Source of the DNA: a phage
DNA length: 40,118 bases
Sequence record: PZ379598.1
Reading direction: 5' to 3' (one strand)
Position 1 is the first letter of the stretch. Each line of letters starts with the position of its first letter. Under the pieces are notes generated by a model, which had not been told where the DNA came from, ran no database searches, and worked only from the letters and a program-made list of their open reading frames with translations. The position numbers and the translations under genes were made by a program. Positions 1 to 40,118 of this stretch are shown here, one piece after another.

Positions 1-151
1 AGACCAATAGTCCCTGCCTATCGTCCTTCCCTAAGCCATAGCCACAACCTATCGTTGACCTGAAGTCTTGACCATCGGTCTAACCTTATGATATACTGGG
101 GTAGGGCCTTTGGTCTGGACTGAAAGATGGCCTATGGGGGACTTGAGGTTC
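1..151. repeat. Direct terminal repeat, copy at window start
   Basis: Bases 1-151 are identical to 39968-40118; T7-like genomes carry direct terminal repeats of this size. Confidence 0.9.
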
Positions 152-3054: not shown

Positions 3055-3496
3055 CTTGGAGCCTCCTTATTGTGTCCTGAAGCGCCTTCTCCTTAAGGTC
3101 TGCCTCCTGAGTTAATCGGATAAGACTTTTAGAAGTTTCTGGGTGTAGTTCGACTCTACCATTAGGGAAGCATCTACTGACATCTGACTCGGTGAGACCT
3201 GAGGTGTTGACTCGGACGCGCAGCCGCTTGTTATCGCGGTTAAGGTCAGCAATAATCCTATCAGTAGAGCCTTCCAGCGCGGACATCTTGTCTTGCCACT
3301 CGGCTGACACTTTGTTGATTTCACCTTGGACAGCAGCCCGTTGATTCTCTCGTGCCTCAAGTTTCGTGATGTACTCATTGTTTACCTTCGCCTCCCACTT
3401 ATTGTCTGCCACCCAGTAGCCAGAACAGAACAGGAGTCCTGCAACCAGCCACGGGATTGCTTTACGTAAAAGTTCGAGCATAGTTGCCCTCCTCAT
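3044..3496 (-). CDS. gp18.5: i-spanin (Rz-like, T7 gp18.5-like)
   Basis: 150 aa; N-terminal membrane anchor then coiled-coil; matches recalled T7 gp18.5 (LRKLIPW..AG.LF, EGSTDRII.DL..DNKRLRVRV, LQDTIR.LQ). Confidence 0.9.
   Translation of the reverse strand: MRRATMLELLRKAIPWLVAGLLFCSGYWVADNKWEAKVNNEYITKLEARENQRAAVQGEINKVSAEWQDKMSALEGSTDRIIADLNRDNKRLRVRVNTSGLTESDVSRCFPNGRVELHPETSKSLIRLTQEADLKEKALQDTIRRLQGVK
3112..3378 (-). CDS. gp18.7: o-spanin (Rz1-like) embedded in the +1 frame of the i-spanin gene
   Basis: Embedded ORF with a hydrophobic stretch followed by a lipobox-like TSGC and a Pro/Ser-rich tail; embedded Rz1 architecture is typical for T7. The true start is probably downstream of the ORF-track start. 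Confidence 0.65.
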   Translation of the reverse strand: MSTSRNLRHERINGLLSKVKSTKCQPSGKTRCPRWKALLIGLLLTLTAITSGCASESTPQVSPSQMSVDASLMVESNYTQKLLKVLSD

Positions 3497-3582: not shown

Positions 3583-3846
3583 TTACTGTACACCATACCC
3601 GGTGTCGTTATCCTCAGTAGCTGAGAGCACCTTATCGTACTCCCTGTTCAAAGCCTCCATATCAGCGAGCGTCTTCTCGTCAACAGACACCTTGCTTAGC
3701 ACGAAGTTGTGACGAGCCAGTAGCTTCTCAATGGCGTTGTAAAGCTGAGGTGAACGCTTAGAGTCATCCCGCAGGTCTTGCAGCATGAGTCTAGCACGTT
3801 CAGTATCCAGCATCAAGAGGAACTTCTCTAAGTCCATCTGCGTCAT
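3583..3846 (-). CDS. gp18: Terminase small subunit (T7 gp18-like)
   Basis: 87 aa; matches recalled T7 gp18 (F..MLDT, RSPQLYNAI.KLL.RH.F). Confidence 0.85.
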   Translation of the reverse strand: MTQMDLEKFLLMLDTERARLMLQDLRDDSKRSPQLYNAIEKLLARHNFVLSKVSVDEKTLADMEALNREYDKVLSATEDNDTGYGVQ

Positions 3847-27514: not shown

Positions 27515-29218
<1,704 letters not shown>

Positions 29219-29268: not shown

Positions 29269-29288
29269 CCCTAAGGTGATAGTTTAGG
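29269..29288 (-). promoter_or_regulatory. Variant phage promoter upstream of the primase-helicase gene
   Basis: Plus-strand CCCTAAGGTGATAGTTTAGG (two mismatches to the consensus in the TATAG box), preceded by a GGGAC...GTCCC hairpin at about 29248-29267. Confidence 0.55.
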
Positions 29289-33782: not shown

Positions 33783-34033
33783 TATTTCCAGCTCCTATAA
33801 GCGTTAAGTTGCTGCAAGCACCATTGCTCACAGTTAAAGATTTCGTGTTCGGTAAACTCGCGGGAGACCAGAAGCCTTCCACCGTCTGCTTCAATGATTC
33901 TGACCAATACCATGCGGGAGTACGGCGAGTCATCCATTAGGACCTCAAGTCCTGCCTCGCTCATCCAGCGGTGGGTCCGCCCTAACGATGACCACTGGCT
34001 CGGGGATGCGTCGAATAACCAACGTTTACTCAT
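33782..34033 (-). CDS. gp1.2: T7 gp1.2-like protein (in T7, inhibitor of host dGTPase)
   Basis: 83 aa; C-terminal half resembles recalled T7 gp1.2 (RI.E..G.L...........E..FN.C..WL....Y..W). Confidence 0.7.
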   Translation of the reverse strand: MSKRWLFDASPSQWSSLGRTHRWMSEAGLEVLMDDSPYSRMVLVRIIEADGGRLLVSREFTEHEIFNCEQWCLQQLNAYRSWK

Positions 34034-34036
34034 GGC

Positions 34037-34216
34037 TTACACTCCTACGAAATACTTCTCTTGGTTAACCAGAGAGTCTTTACCTTCAGCGTTTCGGAAA
34101 GCGCCTTTGATACCACCACCACGCTTGGTCTTGTTCAGTTTGCGGCCCTTCGGGATGTAACCTTCAGTCTGCTGACGTTCACGGATGCGCTCGAAGTTGA
34201 TAGTGTTCTGATACAT
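34037..34216 (-). CDS. gp1.1: T7 gp1.1-like small basic protein (59 aa)
   Basis: Hand-translated ORF MYQNTINFERIRERQQTEGYIPKGRKLNKTKRGGGIKGAF... containing KGRKLNKTKR, identical to the motif in recalled T7 gp1.1; just below the 60-aa track cutoff. Confidence 0.7.
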   Translation of the reverse strand: MYQNTINFERIRERQQTEGYIPKGRKLNKTKRGGGIKGAFRNAEGKDSLVNQEKYFVGV

Positions 34217-34249
34217 ACGGTTAAATCTCCAGTAGTGTTTATTTAGGGT

Positions 34250-34293
34250 TAATCATGAAGGCCACGACTTTGAGTCATGACCTTGAGTCTAAT
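34250..34293 (-). promoter_or_regulatory. Putative RNase III processing hairpin (R1.1 position)
   Basis: Minus strand GACTCAAGGTCATGACTCAAAGTCGTGGCCTTCATGATT; third copy of the conserved element, in the leader between the phi1.1-like promoter and gene 1.1. Confidence 0.6.
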
Positions 34294-34313
34294 CCTATAG
34301 TGATAGTTTAGGG
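34294..34313 (-). promoter_or_regulatory. Phage RNAP promoter (phi1.1 analogue)
   Basis: Plus-strand CCTATAGTGATAGTTTAGGG. Confidence 0.8.
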
Positions 34314-34333
34314 TTAACCTCTTCTGCGTTGGA

Positions 34334-34603
34334 TTAAAGTGAATACTGCGAGTGCTCCCAGCCACATGGCCAGTAACTGTATGTCTGTCGTTTGGCCTGC
34401 TCCAGCTTGGACACTGCGTCCTTCAGGTACTTCTCGTGGCTGGACTCGACCAGATATACAAGAGTCTTGAACGGGATGTTAAGCTGCTTGGACATCTCGG
34501 TAGGGATGACCGTGGTCTTCACCAGACCCTTGCCGTTGTGTTCTGTTACGGTCACGATTTGAGTCCCACCATTAACGCCAGTATGCTTGTGTGCAAATTT
34601 CAT
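34334..34603 (-). CDS. Hypothetical protein (89 aa)
   Basis: ORF with AAGGAGAG 4 nt upstream of the ATG; lies between RNAP and the phi1.1 promoter, where T7 has no gene. Confidence 0.65.
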   Translation of the reverse strand: MKFAHKHTGVNGGTQIVTVTEHNGKGLVKTTVIPTEMSKQLNIPFKTLVYLVESSHEKYLKDAVSKLEQAKRQTYSYWPCGWEHSQYSL

Positions 34604-34613
34604 AACTCTCTCC

Positions 34614-34844
34614 TTATCTAATTAGAGGGAATGACGGATACTGAATGCGCTCGTCTTCCATCCACGCGTTAAGAACTTCATCAATCGAAGCTATAAGGTT
34701 GTACTCGTTAGGTTGAATCCACCCAGTCACACCCGACTGTAATCTGTCTCTGAGAATGATTAAATCCTTATAAGTCAGCTCTACATGGCAACGTCCCGAC
34801 CCATCGTTGAATACCCTGTTGTGTGCTACAAGTTTCATTGACAT
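34614..34844 (-). CDS. Hypothetical protein (76 aa)
   Basis: ORF with AGGAGGAG upstream, 15 nt after the RNAP stop; no recognisable motif. Confidence 0.65.
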   Translation of the reverse strand: MSMKLVAHNRVFNDGSGRCHVELTYKDLIILRDRLQSGVTGWIQPNEYNLIASIDEVLNAWMEDERIQYPSFPLIR

Positions 34845-34859
34845 ATACTCCTCCTGTTG

Positions 34860-37541
34860 TTAAGCGAATGCAAAGTCTGAAGACAAGATGTCTTCGATAT
34901 TCAGTTTACCTTTCTTCGGAAGCTCAGGCAACTTGTCTCTCTGGCTCTCGTGAAGCTGGTATTCAAACTGCTCGTAGAAGTCAAGCAGCACATCGTTGTC
35001 GCGGTATGTCTCGACCATCGTCTCACGGACTCCACGGAACAGATACTCAGCGTCAGCCGGGATGGTCCCGAAGCTATCGTGAATCACTGCGAATGACATC
35101 ACGCCATATTTGCGGTGCGTGTGGACTACAGTCTTGCGGAGGTGGCTACCATCTTGTGAGTGGACGAAGTTCGGGCTAATGCCTGACTCCTGCTTGTGCT
35201 TGTCCAGCTCTTTCTTCGTGCCTTTGTTGACGGTAGGCTGAAGGTTGAATGACCCTAAGAACATCAGGTTCAGACGAGTGGTGTCCTTCTTGCGGTATTC
35301 CTGCCAGACAGGGAAACCATCAGGTGTGACCCAGTGTACCGGAAGACAAGGCTTCAGGATTTCTCCAGTCTTCTTGTCCTTCACTTCAGCAGCAAGCAGC
35401 TTGGCAGCACCCTGAAGCCATTTCATCGCGTCAACCGCAGCAACTACGGTCACACTCACAGCTTCCCAAATCATCTTAGCCATGAAGCGAGATGCTTGGC
35501 TTGGTTCAGTGAACATAGCGCCAGACCCTGAGTCAATCGCTGGCATCACGATGTCCTCGTAAACTTGGTCTGCGAAGCCGTACTCTTTCGACCCGTAGGC
35601 CAGAGTCATGACCGAACGCTTAGTGACCTTTCGTGACATACCGTAGGTCAGCCACTGACGGGCAAGCTCTCGTGTCCCCAGCTTGAGACGCTCGGTAATC
35701 TCACCAGTTTTCTTGTCCTCGTGAGTTACCATCTCGTTGTCCGTACCGTTAACCAGTAGGACTTTAAGCTCCTCCTCAATGCGGTCAGACACGATGCGGT
35801 AGATGTCTTGGACCTTACCGGATGGCGTCAGGTTTACTGCATGTCCACCGATGTGGTCGCGAAGCATAGCGCTGAAGTGCTGAATCCCAGAGCAGGACCC
35901 ATCGAACGCTATCGGCAGCGAGCAGGAGTAAGACAAGCCGTGGTGCATTACGCCAGCATACTCGAAGCAGAACGCTAGGAAGCAGAACGGAGAGTCTAAC
36001 TTGCCCCACCACTCAATGCTATCCATCGGTGCCTTGGCAGCAGCCATGATGTTGTCGTGGTTATCTTCCACCCACTTGATACGCTCCTCGAAGGTGACTT
36101 TATCGACACCCGCGCAGTTTGCACCGTGGACCTTCAGCCATTTGAAACCATCAGCACCAATAGGCTTACCGACTGCCAGAGTCAGAAGACCCTTTTGCAT
36201 GTCGTTACCCTGAGGGTTGAACATCGGCACAGCGTAGACGCGACCGCGCCAGTCCATGTTATACGGGAACCAGATGGCCTTGAACTGAGAGAACTTGTTC
36301 GCTTGGTTGACGATAAAGCTCAGTGACAATCTTCGTGACTGTCTGGCCTTCTCGCGGCGATAGATACCAGCAGCAGCCTTCTTCCATGCCTTGAGTTCTT
36401 CTTCAGTCTCACCCGCATAGTCCTCAGGCTTCAGCGGTTCCATCTGAGGGATGTCATCAATAGGCGTGTTGTTCAGCTTCTCGACCATGTTCACCACTTC
36501 CAGAACCTTCTTGTTCACTTTCCAAGGTGTATTCTGAATGATGTTCACAGCGTCATAGACTTCAGGCATATACACGTCTTCGTAGCGTGCTACCGCAGAC
36601 TTAGACCCTAAGCGAATCAGTGGTAATGGTCTGCGTCCTTTGGCCCAGTACCCACCGCCTACGACACCAGTCCACGGCTTAGGTGGAACGACGCAAGGCT
36701 GGTAGACTGGAGCTATACCCGCAAGGCTGAATCCTCGTTGTGCCATCTTCTTGACCCAGAAGTCTGACAGGTGGACCATCTCAACGTCAGCCGCTGCATT
36801 GCCAGCACCGTAACGCTTAAGCTCGACCAGTTGTGTGGACTGGATGACAATCTCCAGCATCTTGATTCCAACGTGGACAGCCTCGGTCGGACTCCAAGTC
36901 CCCCACGCATCTTCCAGTTGGCCTTGCTCCAGCATGGATGCCTCGACCGCTTGCATGTAGGCTTTCTTGTAGGACGCCCCGGCCCGCTTATTCAGGTTAT
37001 CAGCTATCGCCTTCTTGAAGTGCTCTTTCTCCTTGTCACGGATGCGACCGAAGCGGATTTCGTCCTCAAGTGTGCGACCTATCGCTGAGGCCATCGGTGT
37101 AATCGGTATCCCTTCAGGCTTGACCAGCTTGGAGAGTATGACCTTCAGTATGATAACCGCAGCAGACTCGCAGGAGATGCGCAAAGAGCGGACCTTTACG
37201 GCCTTCTCTTCAGTGCTCAACATGGTGAACGCTACGCTCGGACGAGAGGTTGACAGCTTCCCGTCTGGACCTTCATGCCACTCCTTGACGGCTTGCGCAA
37301 TCTTAGGGACCAGAGTCTGCATCAAAGGCTTGGCGACCTGATTGTCTGCCAGTTCCCCTCGCTCAGTCTGTCTCTCAAGGTTCTTGATGAAACGTCGCTC
37401 GCCTTCAGTGTATGCCTCGTGCTCAAGCTGAAGCTGTTTGACTGCAAGGTCTTGCCCGTAGTGGTCAGCCAGTAGGTTAAACGGCTCAATGGCGTTCGAC
37501 ACATCAGAGAAGTCGTGCTTGTCAATAGAGATGACGCTCAT
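34860..37541 (-). CDS. gp1: Single-subunit DNA-directed RNA polymerase (T7 gp1-like)
   Basis: 893 aa; colinear with recalled T7 RNAP from the N-terminus (DFSD...PFN.LADHYG, LEHE.Y..GE.RF) through the C-terminal FAFA. Confidence 0.97.
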   Translation of the reverse strand: MSVISIDKHDFSDVSNAIEPFNLLADHYGQDLAVKQLQLEHEAYTEGERRFIKNLERQTERGELADNQVAKPLMQTLVPKIAQAVKEWHEGPDGKLSTSRPSVAFTMLSTEEKAVKVRSLRISCESAAVIILKVILSKLVKPEGIPITPMASAIGRTLEDEIRFGRIRDKEKEHFKKAIADNLNKRAGASYKKAYMQAVEASMLEQGQLEDAWGTWSPTEAVHVGIKMLEIVIQSTQLVELKRYGAGNAAADVEMVHLSDFWVKKMAQRGFSLAGIAPVYQPCVVPPKPWTGVVGGGYWAKGRRPLPLIRLGSKSAVARYEDVYMPEVYDAVNIIQNTPWKVNKKVLEVVNMVEKLNNTPIDDIPQMEPLKPEDYAGETEEELKAWKKAAAGIYRREKARQSRRLSLSFIVNQANKFSQFKAIWFPYNMDWRGRVYAVPMFNPQGNDMQKGLLTLAVGKPIGADGFKWLKVHGANCAGVDKVTFEERIKWVEDNHDNIMAAAKAPMDSIEWWGKLDSPFCFLAFCFEYAGVMHHGLSYSCSLPIAFDGSCSGIQHFSAMLRDHIGGHAVNLTPSGKVQDIYRIVSDRIEEELKVLLVNGTDNEMVTHEDKKTGEITERLKLGTRELARQWLTYGMSRKVTKRSVMTLAYGSKEYGFADQVYEDIVMPAIDSGSGAMFTEPSQASRFMAKMIWEAVSVTVVAAVDAMKWLQGAAKLLAAEVKDKKTGEILKPCLPVHWVTPDGFPVWQEYRKKDTTRLNLMFLGSFNLQPTVNKGTKKELDKHKQESGISPNFVHSQDGSHLRKTVVHTHRKYGVMSFAVIHDSFGTIPADAEYLFRGVRETMVETYRDNDVLLDFYEQFEYQLHESQRDKLPELPKKGKLNIEDILSSDFAFA

Positions 37542-37614
37542 ACTTAAAGTCCTTGTTATTAGTCTTTCACTTAAAGTCTCTTTGGTCTTTCACTTGGAGT
37601 CTTAGACCTTGAGT

Positions 37615-37633
37615 CCTATAGTGATAGTTAAGT
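37615..37633 (-). promoter_or_regulatory. Phage RNAP promoter directly upstream of the RNAP gene
   Basis: Plus-strand CCTATAGTGATAGTTAAGTC, about 75 nt upstream of the RNAP start codon; the leader contains two copies of AGTCTTTCACTT. Confidence 0.7.
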
Positions 37634-37638
37634 CAGAA

Positions 37639-37965
37639 TTACTTGCATATCAGCGGGTTAGCGTGGAGATGACTGAAGTCACCATGAGTCGTGTGCTTGA
37701 TGGTTGACCGTTGGTCTATCGCCTTCCATCCTGAGACTAAAAGTTTACCATCGTCAGTGATTGGTCGTCCACCATACACCAGACACATTAGTTCGGACTT
37801 ATGGCCCTCAGCCCGTAGTCTTGCTTGCAGTACCCGGTCCCGCTCCTGCTGTTGACGTGCGGAGTGACTTGACGTTCCGTGACGATACCCGGTAGCCAGT
37901 AGGCTTAACATTTGCATGTCTGCGTCCATAGAGTGTACCAGATTAATCCCGTATGACTTGTTCAT
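37639..37965 (-). CDS. Hypothetical early protein (108 aa)
   Basis: ORF whose ATG overlaps the upstream stop (TAATG); contains His-rich segments (HGTSSH, HTTHGDFSHLH); no confident family assignment. Confidence 0.6.
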   Translation of the reverse strand: MNKSYGINLVHSMDADMQMLSLLATGYRHGTSSHSARQQQERDRVLQARLRAEGHKSELMCLVYGGRPITDDGKLLVSGWKAIDQRSTIKHTTHGDFSHLHANPLICK

Positions 37966-38168
37966 TACAGTTTGCTCCCAAGTGTTGCTATATCCCAGAC
38001 GTTCGCTAAGTTACGCATGAATCGTCCGTTAGGTTGACGTACAGTCCAGCTACCCAGACGTACATATTTGAATTTGTAGACTTTACGCGCTTTGTTGATG
38101 TCTCTCACCAGCACGTAGGCGATAAGTCCATAGCCTATGGCTATCAATAGTGCGATACTCATAGTCAT
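37965..38168 (-). CDS. Small membrane protein (67 aa), early region
   Basis: MTMSIALLIAIGYGLIAYVLV... with one predicted transmembrane helix; its ATG overlaps the stop of the upstream 34-aa ORF (ATGA). The track reports a 124-aa ORF (37965..38339) starting at a GTG with no ribosome-binding site. Confidence 0.55.
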   Translation of the reverse strand: MTMSIALLIAIGYGLIAYVLVRDINKARKVYKFKYVRLGSWTVRQPNGRFMRNLANVWDIATLGSKL

Positions 38169-38269
38169 AAGCCCCATAACAGTTGAGTAAGGACCGGTAG
38201 TTTGCAGACTAGAGTAAACATTCCCCACACTACGAAGCCTGAGATAGTCCAGATGATTGCAGTGCTCAT
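38165..38269 (-). CDS. Micro membrane protein (34 aa), early region
   Basis: Hand-found ORF MSTAIIWTISGFVVWGMFTLVCKLPVLTQLLWGL with AGGAG 6 nt upstream of the ATG; hydrophobic throughout; in the +1 frame relative to the 124-aa track ORF. Confidence 0.5.
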   Translation of the reverse strand: MSTAIIWTISGFVVWGMFTLVCKLPVLTQLLWGL

Positions 38270-38401
38270 AGTTAACTCCTATCAATGTAAGTGGTAATCT
38301 TTGAGGCCACCTATCAGTCGATGACCTCTCGTCTATCACTCAGTACCATCACGTCAGTGTTATGGTCAAGCTATGATTTGGTTCTCTCCTGTTTATTTAG
38401 G

Positions 38402-38629
38402 TTACTCGCCGTCTCCTTCTGTAAGGCTATCGTCTATTAATTCAAATTTACCGTTTGAGTGTTGGATAGCCTCTTGTCCGCAATGGTCGCAAACCACCAG
38501 TTTATCGAACCCGTCAAACTCGTCACCTGCTACGCAAGAAAGTACGAATTTATGATTGGTGCATACTTCTTGCGTTTCACCGAAAATTGCTCGAAAACCT
38601 TTGGTTATGGCACCAGTGATTGTGTTCAT
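38402..38629 (-). CDS. Hypothetical Cys-rich early protein (75 aa, possible zinc ribbon)
   Basis: ORF with GAGAGGGAAG upstream; four Cys (C-x8-C ... C-x2-C) and an acidic C-terminus; preceded by the same 21-bp leader motif as the Ocr-like gene. Confidence 0.65.
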   Translation of the reverse strand: MNTITGAITKGFRAIFGETQEVCTNHKFVLSCVAGDEFDGFDKLVVCDHCGQEAIQHSNGKFELIDDSLTEGDGE

Positions 38630-38841
38630 ATCTTCCCTCTCAGTTGTTAATGACTATCAGTCAGGCCACCAGCATTGATGACCTGTAGTCTGTCACTTAG
38701 CGTGTAAACTGTCGTGTATACGCTTGCGTCTCCTGTAGACCACTTTCAAGAGACGCATAGCCCAATCGTGGTCTAACTGCCCGGTCTTGACCATAAGCCG
38801 GGCGTTAGTGACGTGGTGCTGGCAGAGGCCATAAGTTACCA

Positions 38842-39345
38842 TCACTCGCAGTCCTCAGCAGCAGGGTCAAACACTACGTTATCATTGATGTCTTCCACCT
38901 GAAGGTGGCGACCTATCACATAGTTGACCTTGGCACATGCAGTAGCGACCTCAAGAGCTACAGCTTGCACAATTATTGCGCCTGTTTTAGCGTCAACTAC
39001 CCAATATTCATCCTCTTCGTCTGCCTCTTCATCCTCAAACCAGACTACATCCAAGCTATTAGACACGTCGTTATAAAGTGCCTCATAGATGCGAGCTTGT
39101 AGGATACGCGTTACGTCCTTGGTTTCAGGTATCATCCCAGAGTCTTCGAACTCGTTGTCTATACCATCAGCAGCCATCACCGTAAAAATCTCGTGGTAAT
39201 AGTGTGGAACCTGACCGTCTACGACCTCATGCAGCGCATCGCTGTAGTCGTCATCTTGAGTCAGGTGGTCGTACTGAATACGCTCGATAAATGCCTCAAC
39301 GGTTGCAGCCAGCAGCTCATAGTATGCGTTAGCATTACGTTCCAT
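38842..39345 (-). CDS. ocr: Ocr-like DNA-mimic anti-restriction protein (T7 gp0.3-like) with C-terminal extension
   Basis: 167 aa; residues 1-110 align with recalled T7 Ocr (NIRYDD..D.DD..DA.H...[35 protein letters not shown]); very acidic; about 50 extra C-terminal residues. Confidence 0.85.
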
Positions 39346-39379
39346 AGTTATATCCTCTCAAAGTTAATTATGTGTTAAT

Positions 39380-39470
39380 GACTATCAGTCAGGGCCTTCA
39401 GATGTAGACTCAAAGGCCCTGTAGTTAGTCGCTATCGGCGCACATTAAGAGTTTATCCAGATTGTTAAAG
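39380..39470 (-). promoter_or_regulatory. R0.3-like RNase III processing region in the early leader
   Basis: Minus strand contains CTCTTTAACAATCTGGATAAACTCTT, closely matching the recalled T7 leader CTCTTTAACAATCTGGTAAATAGCTCTT, followed by a perfect 9-bp hairpin CAGGGCCTT...AAGGCCCTG. Confidence 0.6.
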
Positions 39471-39535
39471 AGCATTCCCTTCAGTCAGAGGACTTCAGGT
39501 AGACCATTCAGTGTTGGTCATCACCGTTGTTTCGA

Positions 39536-39574
39536 TGTGGTACATATTACTTTAAGTCGTTACTGCCTGTCAAC
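39536..39574 (-). promoter_or_regulatory. Host sigma70 early promoter (T7 A3-like)
   Basis: Minus strand TTGACA - 18 nt - TAATAT followed by GTACCACATCGAAAC, paralleling the recalled T7 A3 promoter (TTGACA ... TACGAT GTACCACATGAAAC). A weaker TTGACT-containing candidate lies at about 39675-39715. Confidence 0.65.
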
Positions 39575-39789
39575 TACTTTCTGTCGGTTGCCTGTTGTTC
39601 GTATGTCTTACAGGCTGACTACTTAACCGGACCGGTCCGGCGTCTTCACTATCCGGTTGTTGCCGTGTCGTGTTGACGGAAGCTATTAGGCCATAGTCTG
39701 GACCTATAGTCAATAGGTAATTCGAAATAATATTGATTAAGCTATCGTCGGCCCCATGGTGTAAGAGGATATAGTCTTTGACTAACATG

Positions 39790-39960
39790 TCTTAGACCTT
39801 AAGTCTATAGCCTTGTGTCTATTAACTGTAGGTCTATGACTGTAGGTGTTGGTGTCTTATGGTTGAGACTGTAGGTTAGTGAGACTGTAGGTTATGACTT
39901 ATGGTTGTGAGAGGTAGGCTGTGACCTATGGTTGTGACTTATGGTTATACAGATAGAGAC
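39790..39960. repeat. Array of short repeats next to the terminal repeat (CTGTAGGT and TTATGGTT units, about 4 copies each)
   Basis: Tandem short repeats lie between the early promoter region and the terminal repeat, analogous to the CCTAAAG-type repeats at the T7 left end. Confidence 0.55.
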
Positions 39961-39967
39961 TCAAAGA

Positions 39968-40118
39968 AGACCAATAGTCCCTGCCTATCGTCCTTCCCTA
40001 AGCCATAGCCACAACCTATCGTTGACCTGAAGTCTTGACCATCGGTCTAACCTTATGATATACTGGGGTAGGGCCTTTGGTCTGGACTGAAAGATGGCCT
40101 ATGGGGGACTTGAGGTTC
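39968..40118. repeat. Direct terminal repeat, copy at window end
   Basis: Identical to bases 1-151; the repeat may extend beyond the window edge. Confidence 0.9.

Follow-up and report, generated by a model that had tools for sequence, protein, structure and literature searches.

The gene of a phage RNA polymerase (RNAP) has already been placed, conceptually, under its own promoter for other T7-like phages. The arrangement considered here is likewise known from the records of K1F, PE3-1 and CR8 and from the LUZ100 and phiA318 papers, so that it is not novel and the present comparison is mostly confirmatory. In the Pseudomonas phage LUZ100 a promoter, phi1, directly upstream of the RNAP gene was mapped by ONT-cappable-seq, and in the model of that paper host read-through makes the first RNAP, which is followed by self-amplification (PMC10134795). 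For the Vibrio phages phiA318 and phiAs51 a promoter was predicted before the kinase and RNAP genes, and autoregulation was suggested by the phiA318 authors (PMC4099482). Within Kayfunavirus, a 2026 paper on phage Sparklingdew gives a promoter at the 3' end of the gene that comes before the RNAP gene (PMC13298934). The papers on SH4, Hafnia phage Ca, IMM-002 and CR8/CR44b mention promoters generically only, and none of the papers found on Kayfunavirus discusses the regulatory consequence (the original K1F paper, Scholl & Merril 2005, and Chen & Schneider 2005 were outside the search). Nothing relevant was found when the literature was searched for transcripts, 5' ends or in vitro results from Kayfunavirus or K1F. 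An engineered T7 autogene, with gene 1 under a T7 promoter, was reportedly described by Dubendorff and Studier in 1991. The autogene concept, in which a polymerase gene under its cognate promoter gives positive feedback, has also been used elsewhere (PMC6395690).

The stretch of DNA that was analysed (the window, 40,118 nt) corresponds to the complete genome of a Kayfunavirus (K1F-like; T7-like coliphage) in reverse orientation, with all long ORFs on the minus strand. It was taken to be a complete T7-like genome because its reverse complement begins and ends with the same 151 bases, which form direct terminal repeats of 151 bp at window positions 1-151 and 39968-40118. Identity to known isolates is about 97% for the window as a whole, and about 97% also for the left two thirds of the genome when compared with E. 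coli isolates. Around the promoter before gene 1 the identity to Escherichia phage LM33_P1 and to other phages of Kayfunavirus is 99.6-100%. At the left end (window 39800-39960, minus strand) there are short repeats, ACCTACAGTC and AACCATAAGTC, as is typical for the terminal regions of the T7 group; the corresponding arrays of CR8 are longer. The features on which the analysis of the gene 1 region is based are the following.

39544..39573, minus strand: sigma-70-type promoter near the left end, TTGACA-18-TAATAT, 10/12 (motif match).
37639..37965, minus strand: upstream early ORF of 108 aa in the position of PE3-1 gp0.38; its stop codon (37641-37639) ends 5 nt before promoter position -17.
37611..37633, minus strand: predicted phage-RNAP promoter, 23 bp, -17..+6, ACTTAACTATCACTATA|GGACTC, with the +1 G at 37616 (motif, PWM, conservation).
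37542..37616, minus strand: 5' leader, 75 nt, that a phage-RNAP transcript of gene 1 is predicted to carry (relatives in Kayfunavirus have 75-81 nt).
37550..37554, minus strand: Shine-Dalgarno sequence AAGGA, 8 nt before the ATG and followed by ACUUUAAGU (read from the sequence).
34860..37541, minus strand: gene 1, single-subunit phage RNA polymerase of 893 aa (ORF; records that are 99.6% identical annotate DNA-directed RNA polymerase).
34290..34312, minus strand: next predicted phage promoter, +1 at 34295, with a canonical R1.1-like hairpin at +7 that begins with GACTCAAGGTCAT (z -2.6; PWM, folding).

The intergenic region before gene 1 is 97 nt long and reads, on the minus strand, ...TAA ttctgac TTAACTATCACTATA G(+1)GACTCAAGG... 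ATG; after the upstream stop codon the same stretch can also be rendered as ttctgACTTAACTATCACTATA-G(+1)GACTCAAGGTCTAAGACTCCAAGTGAAAGACCAAAGAGACTTTAAGTGAAAGACTAATAACAAGGACTTTAAGT-ATG. The gp1 protein is 99.4% identical to K1F gp1 and 64% identical to a T7-type RNAP. In the SH4 paper the sequence CAAGGACTTtaagtATG is given as the RBS of the RNAP gene (PMC4925675).

The 19-mer TTAACTATCACTATAGGAC was found with 0 mismatches at 37631..37613 and in nine more copies with 2-3 mismatches on the same strand, where 0.01 would be expected by chance, and the -7..+2 core CACTATAGG occurred 9 times against an expectation of 0.23. A position weight matrix (PWM) was built from the ten strong promoter copies of the genome, and leave-one-out scores were also computed. 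The matrix separated the ten copies (33.2-37.6 bits) from one weak copy (25.2 bits) and from the remaining genome (at most 15.6 bits), and the copy before gene 1 scored 34.4 bits as compared to 33.2-37.6 for the other nine (leave-one-out 31.7 versus 29.1-36.3). All ten strong copies and the weak one are on the coding (minus) strand, where each either directly precedes an ORF start or lies close to the right end. The weak eleventh copy, CCTAAACTATCACCTTAGGGATG, has its +1 at 29271 (minus strand) and precedes a primase/helicase-size ORF (29215..27515). The element before gene 1 has the -17..+6 sequence of the T7-group promoter family, belongs to a multi-copy family on the coding strand and carries specificity bases that match the specificity loop of the polymerase. 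The 23-bp element at 37633..37611 (minus strand) is probably a working promoter from which the single-subunit RNAP of the phage transcribes, and the leftmost one of its kind in the genome.

The earlier note had placed a phage promoter about 75 nt upstream of the RNAP start codon, and this was borne out, with the +1 G at 37616 located exactly 75 nt before the ATG (37541) and a score within the range of the family. Its description of the copy as full consensus agrees with the lack of mismatches to the 19-mer and with the score, and is slightly generous with regard to the T at -14 and the GGACTC start. A T at -14 is present in 3 of the ten copies (A in the other 7) and is the only departure from the majority besides the transcribed bases GGACTC, which are unlike the GGGAGA/GGGACT of the late promoters. 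The four leftmost promoters (gene 1, 34295, the 1.6-size ORF and the 2.5-size ORF) start with GGAC or GGAT, and GGGA starts are found in the copies that precede the capsid, 6.5 and 13 positions and in those close to the right end.

Conservation was examined in 80 IMG/VR loci encoding RNAP relatives and, in addition, in K1F, Cronobacter phage Dev2 and Kosakonia phage Kc166A. Every Kayfunavirus-type locus among the 80 had its own promoter with the +1 at -75 to -81 from the ATG, and the same was found in K1F, Dev2 and Kc166A. About 40 Kayfunavirus-type gene-1 leaders were recovered in all, with the promoter 75-81 nt upstream in every one, and none of the 18 distinct leader sequences from all loci compared was without a promoter before gene 1. 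Metagenome contigs were also retrieved with a 21-mer covering the RBS and start codon, with the promoter outside the 21-mer, and the promoter was present in 15/15 of these contigs at -75, -76 or -81. The check proposed at the outset, whether the promoter is conserved at this position in related phages, was thus answered in the affirmative. In the Dev2-type relatives the gene-1 promoter carries T-2A (CACTAAAGG) and, because this departs from their own consensus, its strength may be deliberately low.

The sequence of the gene-1 copy also varies together with the specificity of the polymerase. In the GW1-like phages (L020 and L040; RNAP 89% identical) ATTAAACCCTCACTATAGG is found at all 7-8 promoters including the gene-1 copy, and at T7 positions 748 and 756 their specificity loop carries the T3-like residues D and R, as opposed to N and N in the RNAP of the window. 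Citrobacter phage CR8 (Caroctavirus; RNAP 79% identical) has the consensus AAGGAAGGTACACTATAGG, a different loop and a copy 93 nt before gene 1, which is annotated as 'predicted promoter' in the CR8 record. The specificity bases (-12..-8) are ACCCT in the GW1-like phages, AACTAT in the window and AGGTA in CR8. In the window, the GW1-like phages and CR8 the gene-1 promoter thus follows the consensus of its own genome, and two independent lineages have changed. Given that the gene-1 copy tracks polymerase specificity, a sequence acting only in RNA or a relic would not be expected, and we consider this co-variation the decisive comparative point in favour of a working promoter. A promoter at a fixed position that tracks the specificity of its polymerase is also a clean natural example. 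As a separate observation, L020 and L040 represent a T3-like specificity switch inside a genus that otherwise has AACTAT and N/N, and they form a natural pair of co-evolving polymerase and promoter.

According to the T7 RefSeq record, phiOL is located at nt 405, upstream of A1-A3 and of all early genes, and a minor E. coli promoter, C, is annotated at 3113, which is 58 nt ahead of gene 1. The statement in the earlier note that the first phage promoters of T7 come after gene 1 is therefore wrong. In the T7-type (TAATACGACTCACTATAG), T3-type (AATTAACCCTCACTAAAG) and K11-type (AATTAGGGCACACTATAG) loci a phage promoter was found 2.5-3.4 kb upstream of gene 1 in all cases, and no phage promoter was found within 400 nt of gene 1 in the loci of these three types that were surveyed. 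Since a phiOL-type promoter lies upstream of gene 1, T7-group polymerases could in principle already reach their own gene. The contrast drawn with T7 was to this extent overstated, and the part of it that stands is one of position and proximity, with a near-consensus copy that abuts gene 1 and no phage promoter at the left end of the genome. phiOL and its T3- and K11-like counterparts resemble the Kayfunavirus copy in being phage-RNAP promoters upstream of gene 1 on the coding strand; they differ in their distance from gene 1 (2.5-3.4 kb) and in their place at the left end, ahead of the host promoters and of every early gene, whereas the Kayfunavirus copy is 75 nt from the ATG. With a phage coordinate of about 2503 the latter is found downstream of the sigma-70 site, and so does not have a phiOL-type location. 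In one T3-type contig (L041, 9372-10001), which seems to be without most early genes, the left-end phage promoter precedes gene 1 by only 629 nt, and gene 1 is directly adjoined by a gene-0.3-type leader.

Among the known relatives, nothing substantive differs between K1F, PE3-1, LM33_P1 and the window. The core AACTATCACTATAGG is found without a mismatch in K1F (NC_007456) at 2478-2492, with the ATG following at 2566 and a leader that is nearly identical, the leader of LM33_P1 is 100% identical to that of the window, and in PE3-1 (KJ748011) the 23-mer is annotated as a promoter at 2874-2896. The locus shares with LUZ100 a cognate phage-specific promoter immediately upstream of a single-subunit RNAP gene. 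In LUZ100, however, the start site was mapped experimentally and gating by a MarR-like repressor in a lysogeny module was proposed, whereas the Kayfunavirus locus is strictly T7-like and without repressor or integrase; the two belong to separate lineages, and their promoters are unrelated beyond being of the T7 type. The engineered T7 autogene is likewise a polymerase gene driven by its cognate promoter with positive feedback as the result, but it is synthetic, whereas the arrangement in Kayfunavirus is natural and would be started off by host transcription in the infected cell.

By analogy with T7, host RNAP starting from the left-end sigma-70 promoter(s) would read through the small early genes into gene 1 and produce the first polymerase, and the predicted promoter at 39573-39544 is the likely source of these first gene-1 transcripts. 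The phage RNAP would then initiate at G37616 and make an mRNA with the 75-nt leader and the RBS of gene 1 that continues into the downstream DNA-metabolism genes. The transcript from this +1 would include the gene-1 SD sequence AAGGA within its leader, with the cognate promoter upstream, and no terminator-like site was found between promoter and gene 1 (coding strand, 34000-40118). Gene 1 would in this way be transcribed by both the host and the phage enzyme, and dual transcription would therefore create a positive-feedback (autogene-like) loop. Such an autogenous loop follows logically if the promoter fires, and from the sequence we infer initiation in vivo as well as its strength, its timing and the feedback.

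With regard to strength, the GGAC start groups the gene-1 promoter with the promoters before the 1.x-2.5 genes and not with the GGGA late promoters. The class II promoters of T7 are of moderate strength and are subject to a lysozyme-sensitive shut-off late in infection. By analogy, this suggests that the gene-1 promoter might be moderately strong and closed down by lysozyme at late times, so that the loop would be capped. The start GGACUC is not the optimal GGGAGA and counts against the promoter reading. An active promoter would set Kayfunavirus and Caroctavirus apart from the textbook scheme of T7, where a short burst of host transcription fixes the polymerase supply, and polymerase synthesis would be self-sustaining with possible effects on the speed of the early-to-middle switch, on robustness to inhibition of host RNAP and on burst size. 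K1F-type polymerase/promoter pairs also serve as orthogonal parts in synthetic biology, and phages of the K1F/LM33_P1 type are candidates for therapy. The conservation of the 23-mer could partly be due to a second role, in read-through RNA or in replication priming.

It is conceivable that the element is a functional promoter whose selected role is not autoregulation, being either a relocated counterpart of phiOL, used as a secondary replication origin, or the first promoter of the middle-gene unit, with transcription of gene 1 as a by-product. The replication origins of T7 are associated with promoters, the leader is A-rich, and no phiOL-type promoter was found in window 37640-40118 (phage coordinates 1-2480; best PWM score -0.8 bits) in a genome whose T7-, T3- and K11-like relatives have one. 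We nevertheless regard this as quite unlikely, given that the transcript would carry an intact gene-1 RBS at a tightly conserved distance (75-81 nt), that the middle genes after gene 1 are already served by a second promoter and canonical hairpin at 34295, and that no sequence feature specifically marks an origin.

A second alternative concerns the RNA, and to evaluate it the leader has to be described further.

37606..37615, minus strand: GACTCAAGGT motif, +2..+11, a 10-mer that also opens canonical RNase III-like hairpins elsewhere in the genome.
37559..37602, minus strand: two 21-nt imperfect direct repeats (37559-37579 and 37582-37602), 18/21 identical, spacing 23.
37564..37627, minus strand: predicted irregular 64-nt hairpin, in read-through RNA only, a possible counterpart of T7 R1 (folding).

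On the coding strand ACCTTGAGTC is the same as GACTCAAGGT at 37615..37606, and this motif is present in 8 exact copies genome-wide and at 28 sites with at most one mismatch versus 3.8 expected. At 34289, 27293 and 3576 (minus strand) a sense-strand copy opens an RNase III-like hairpin of the canonical T7 type, with the form GACTCAAGGTCAT-loop-GTGGCCTTyATGrTTA. The earlier suggestion that the leader has a motif in common with the RNase III elements was accordingly confirmed, as the three canonical hairpins open with the same 10-mer. When the leader was aligned with these hairpins, homology was restricted to GGACTCAAGGTC; the 5' 11 nt GACTCAAGGTC are in common, and the 3' arm is AGACCAAAGAG and not GTGGCCTT. 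The leader was rejected as a canonical RNase III site, as it does not have the 3' arm GTGGCCTTyATGrTTA. Hairpins of the form AGGTCATC...GGTGGCCT also precede each of the early genes at about 39400, 38680 and 38330.

The repeats consist of the core AGTCTTTCACTT, which is exact at 37561-37572, and the core GGTCTTTCACTT at 37584-37595, which matches it in 11/12 positions, so that of the two copies of AGTCTTTCACTT previously claimed one is exact and the other only approximate. Tandem Repeats Finder reported nothing in the leader. The 21-nt repeats were considered as a conserved operator and this was rejected, as the layout differs in the Dev2-type and Kc166A leaders.

According to the RNA-based alternative, the promoter core UAUCACUAUAGG would serve as 5' arm in an irregular hairpin of host-made read-through RNA, processed in the manner of RNase III sites before gene 1, and promoter activity would be secondary or absent. 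T7 is said to have an RNase III site, R1, at the equivalent place before gene 1 (Dunn and Studier, in 1983), and the leader of the window begins with the GACTCAAGGT motif of the canonical RNase III-like hairpins. The 64-nt hairpin appears in the predictions only with the promoter bases present: UCACU..AGG of the promoter pairs with CUU..AGUGA of the leader, whereas the transcript starting at +1 folds weakly and no better than shuffled sequences (z +0.4). The probability of the UCACU/AGUGA helix is 0.9-1.0 in leaders of the window and GW1 types, and the partner segment AGTGA(A/T)AAGAC is conserved in leaders that have otherwise diverged. In the Dev2 type, T-2A together with a 1-nt difference in the partner results in a perfect 11-bp complement (TATCACTAAAG / CTTTAGTGATA), which represents a single event.

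Several results are difficult to reconcile with such an RNA element. The stability of the 64-nt fold (dG -17.4 kcal/mol) is not significant and no better than that of shuffled sequences (z -0.74), and the canonical 3' arm is missing. The helix has a probability of only 0.45 in the Dev2 type and 0.2 in Kc166A, minimum free energy structures differ among the leader types, the CR8 leader has no complement and hence no hairpin, and an Rfam scan of 37300-37900 gave no match at E <= 1. As a sole explanation the RNA element fails on the -12..-8 bases, which changed along with RNAP specificity in both the GW1-like phages and CR8, and we consider it very unlikely.

A promoter for the phage RNAP could also have a role in RNA. 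The paired change in the Dev2 type is suggestive of such a second role, equivalent to that of T7 R1. In the corresponding model the element would be of dual use, acting as a DNA promoter at G37616 and, in host read-through transcripts, as the 5' arm (-10..+2) of an R1-like hairpin, such that the mRNA isoforms made by the host and phage enzymes would differ. This model is tentative and, in our estimate, unlikely. If it were true, the gene-1 mRNAs made by the host and by the phage would differ in 5' structure and RNase III processing, and hence in stability or translation; the polymerase mRNA would switch isoform as transcription passes from host to phage, and the promoter of the Dev2 lineage would have drifted off its consensus (T-2A) to perfect pairing.

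That the element is a host sigma-70 promoter, as could be supposed from the note 'host RNAP promoter' for the same 23-mer in the PE3-1 GenBank record (feature 2874-2896) and from the minor E. coli promoter C of T7 58 nt before gene 1, is so improbable that it can practically be dismissed, as no sigma-70 match was found on the coding strand at the promoter site or between it and gene 1, and as the 23-mer is the phage consensus and the other 23-bp promoters of the PE3-1 record are annotated phi6.5, phi9 and phi. For lack of a sigma-70 match we reject the host-promoter reading of the PE3-1 label (KJ748011; loci L002/L005), which is probably an annotation slip.

Placement of a phage promoter before the RNAP gene recurs in several lineages, and it was absent in the T7-, T3- and K11-like phages and in the Vibrio N4/VP4-size contigs surveyed. 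In phiA318 a consensus phage promoter is likewise found upstream of the RNAP gene, one gene away, and in CR8, Pseudomonas phage PspYZU08 and an ICP3-like metagenome contig a consensus promoter is found about 90-150 nt upstream of it; these four differ from the window in promoter sequence and leader, and their promoters are predictions only. PspYZU08 (L109, about 3655-3757) has a full-consensus promoter, TTTAAAAACCCTCACTGAGGCTACA, approximately 88 nt before the ATG of the RNAP gene. In the ICP3-like contig (L113) a phage promoter is present approximately 150 nt before the RNAP gene, and one further contig has a partial match. At about 9770-9830 in L113, approximately 150 nt upstream of the RNAP gene, there is a divergent back-to-back pair of phage promoters, one on each strand.
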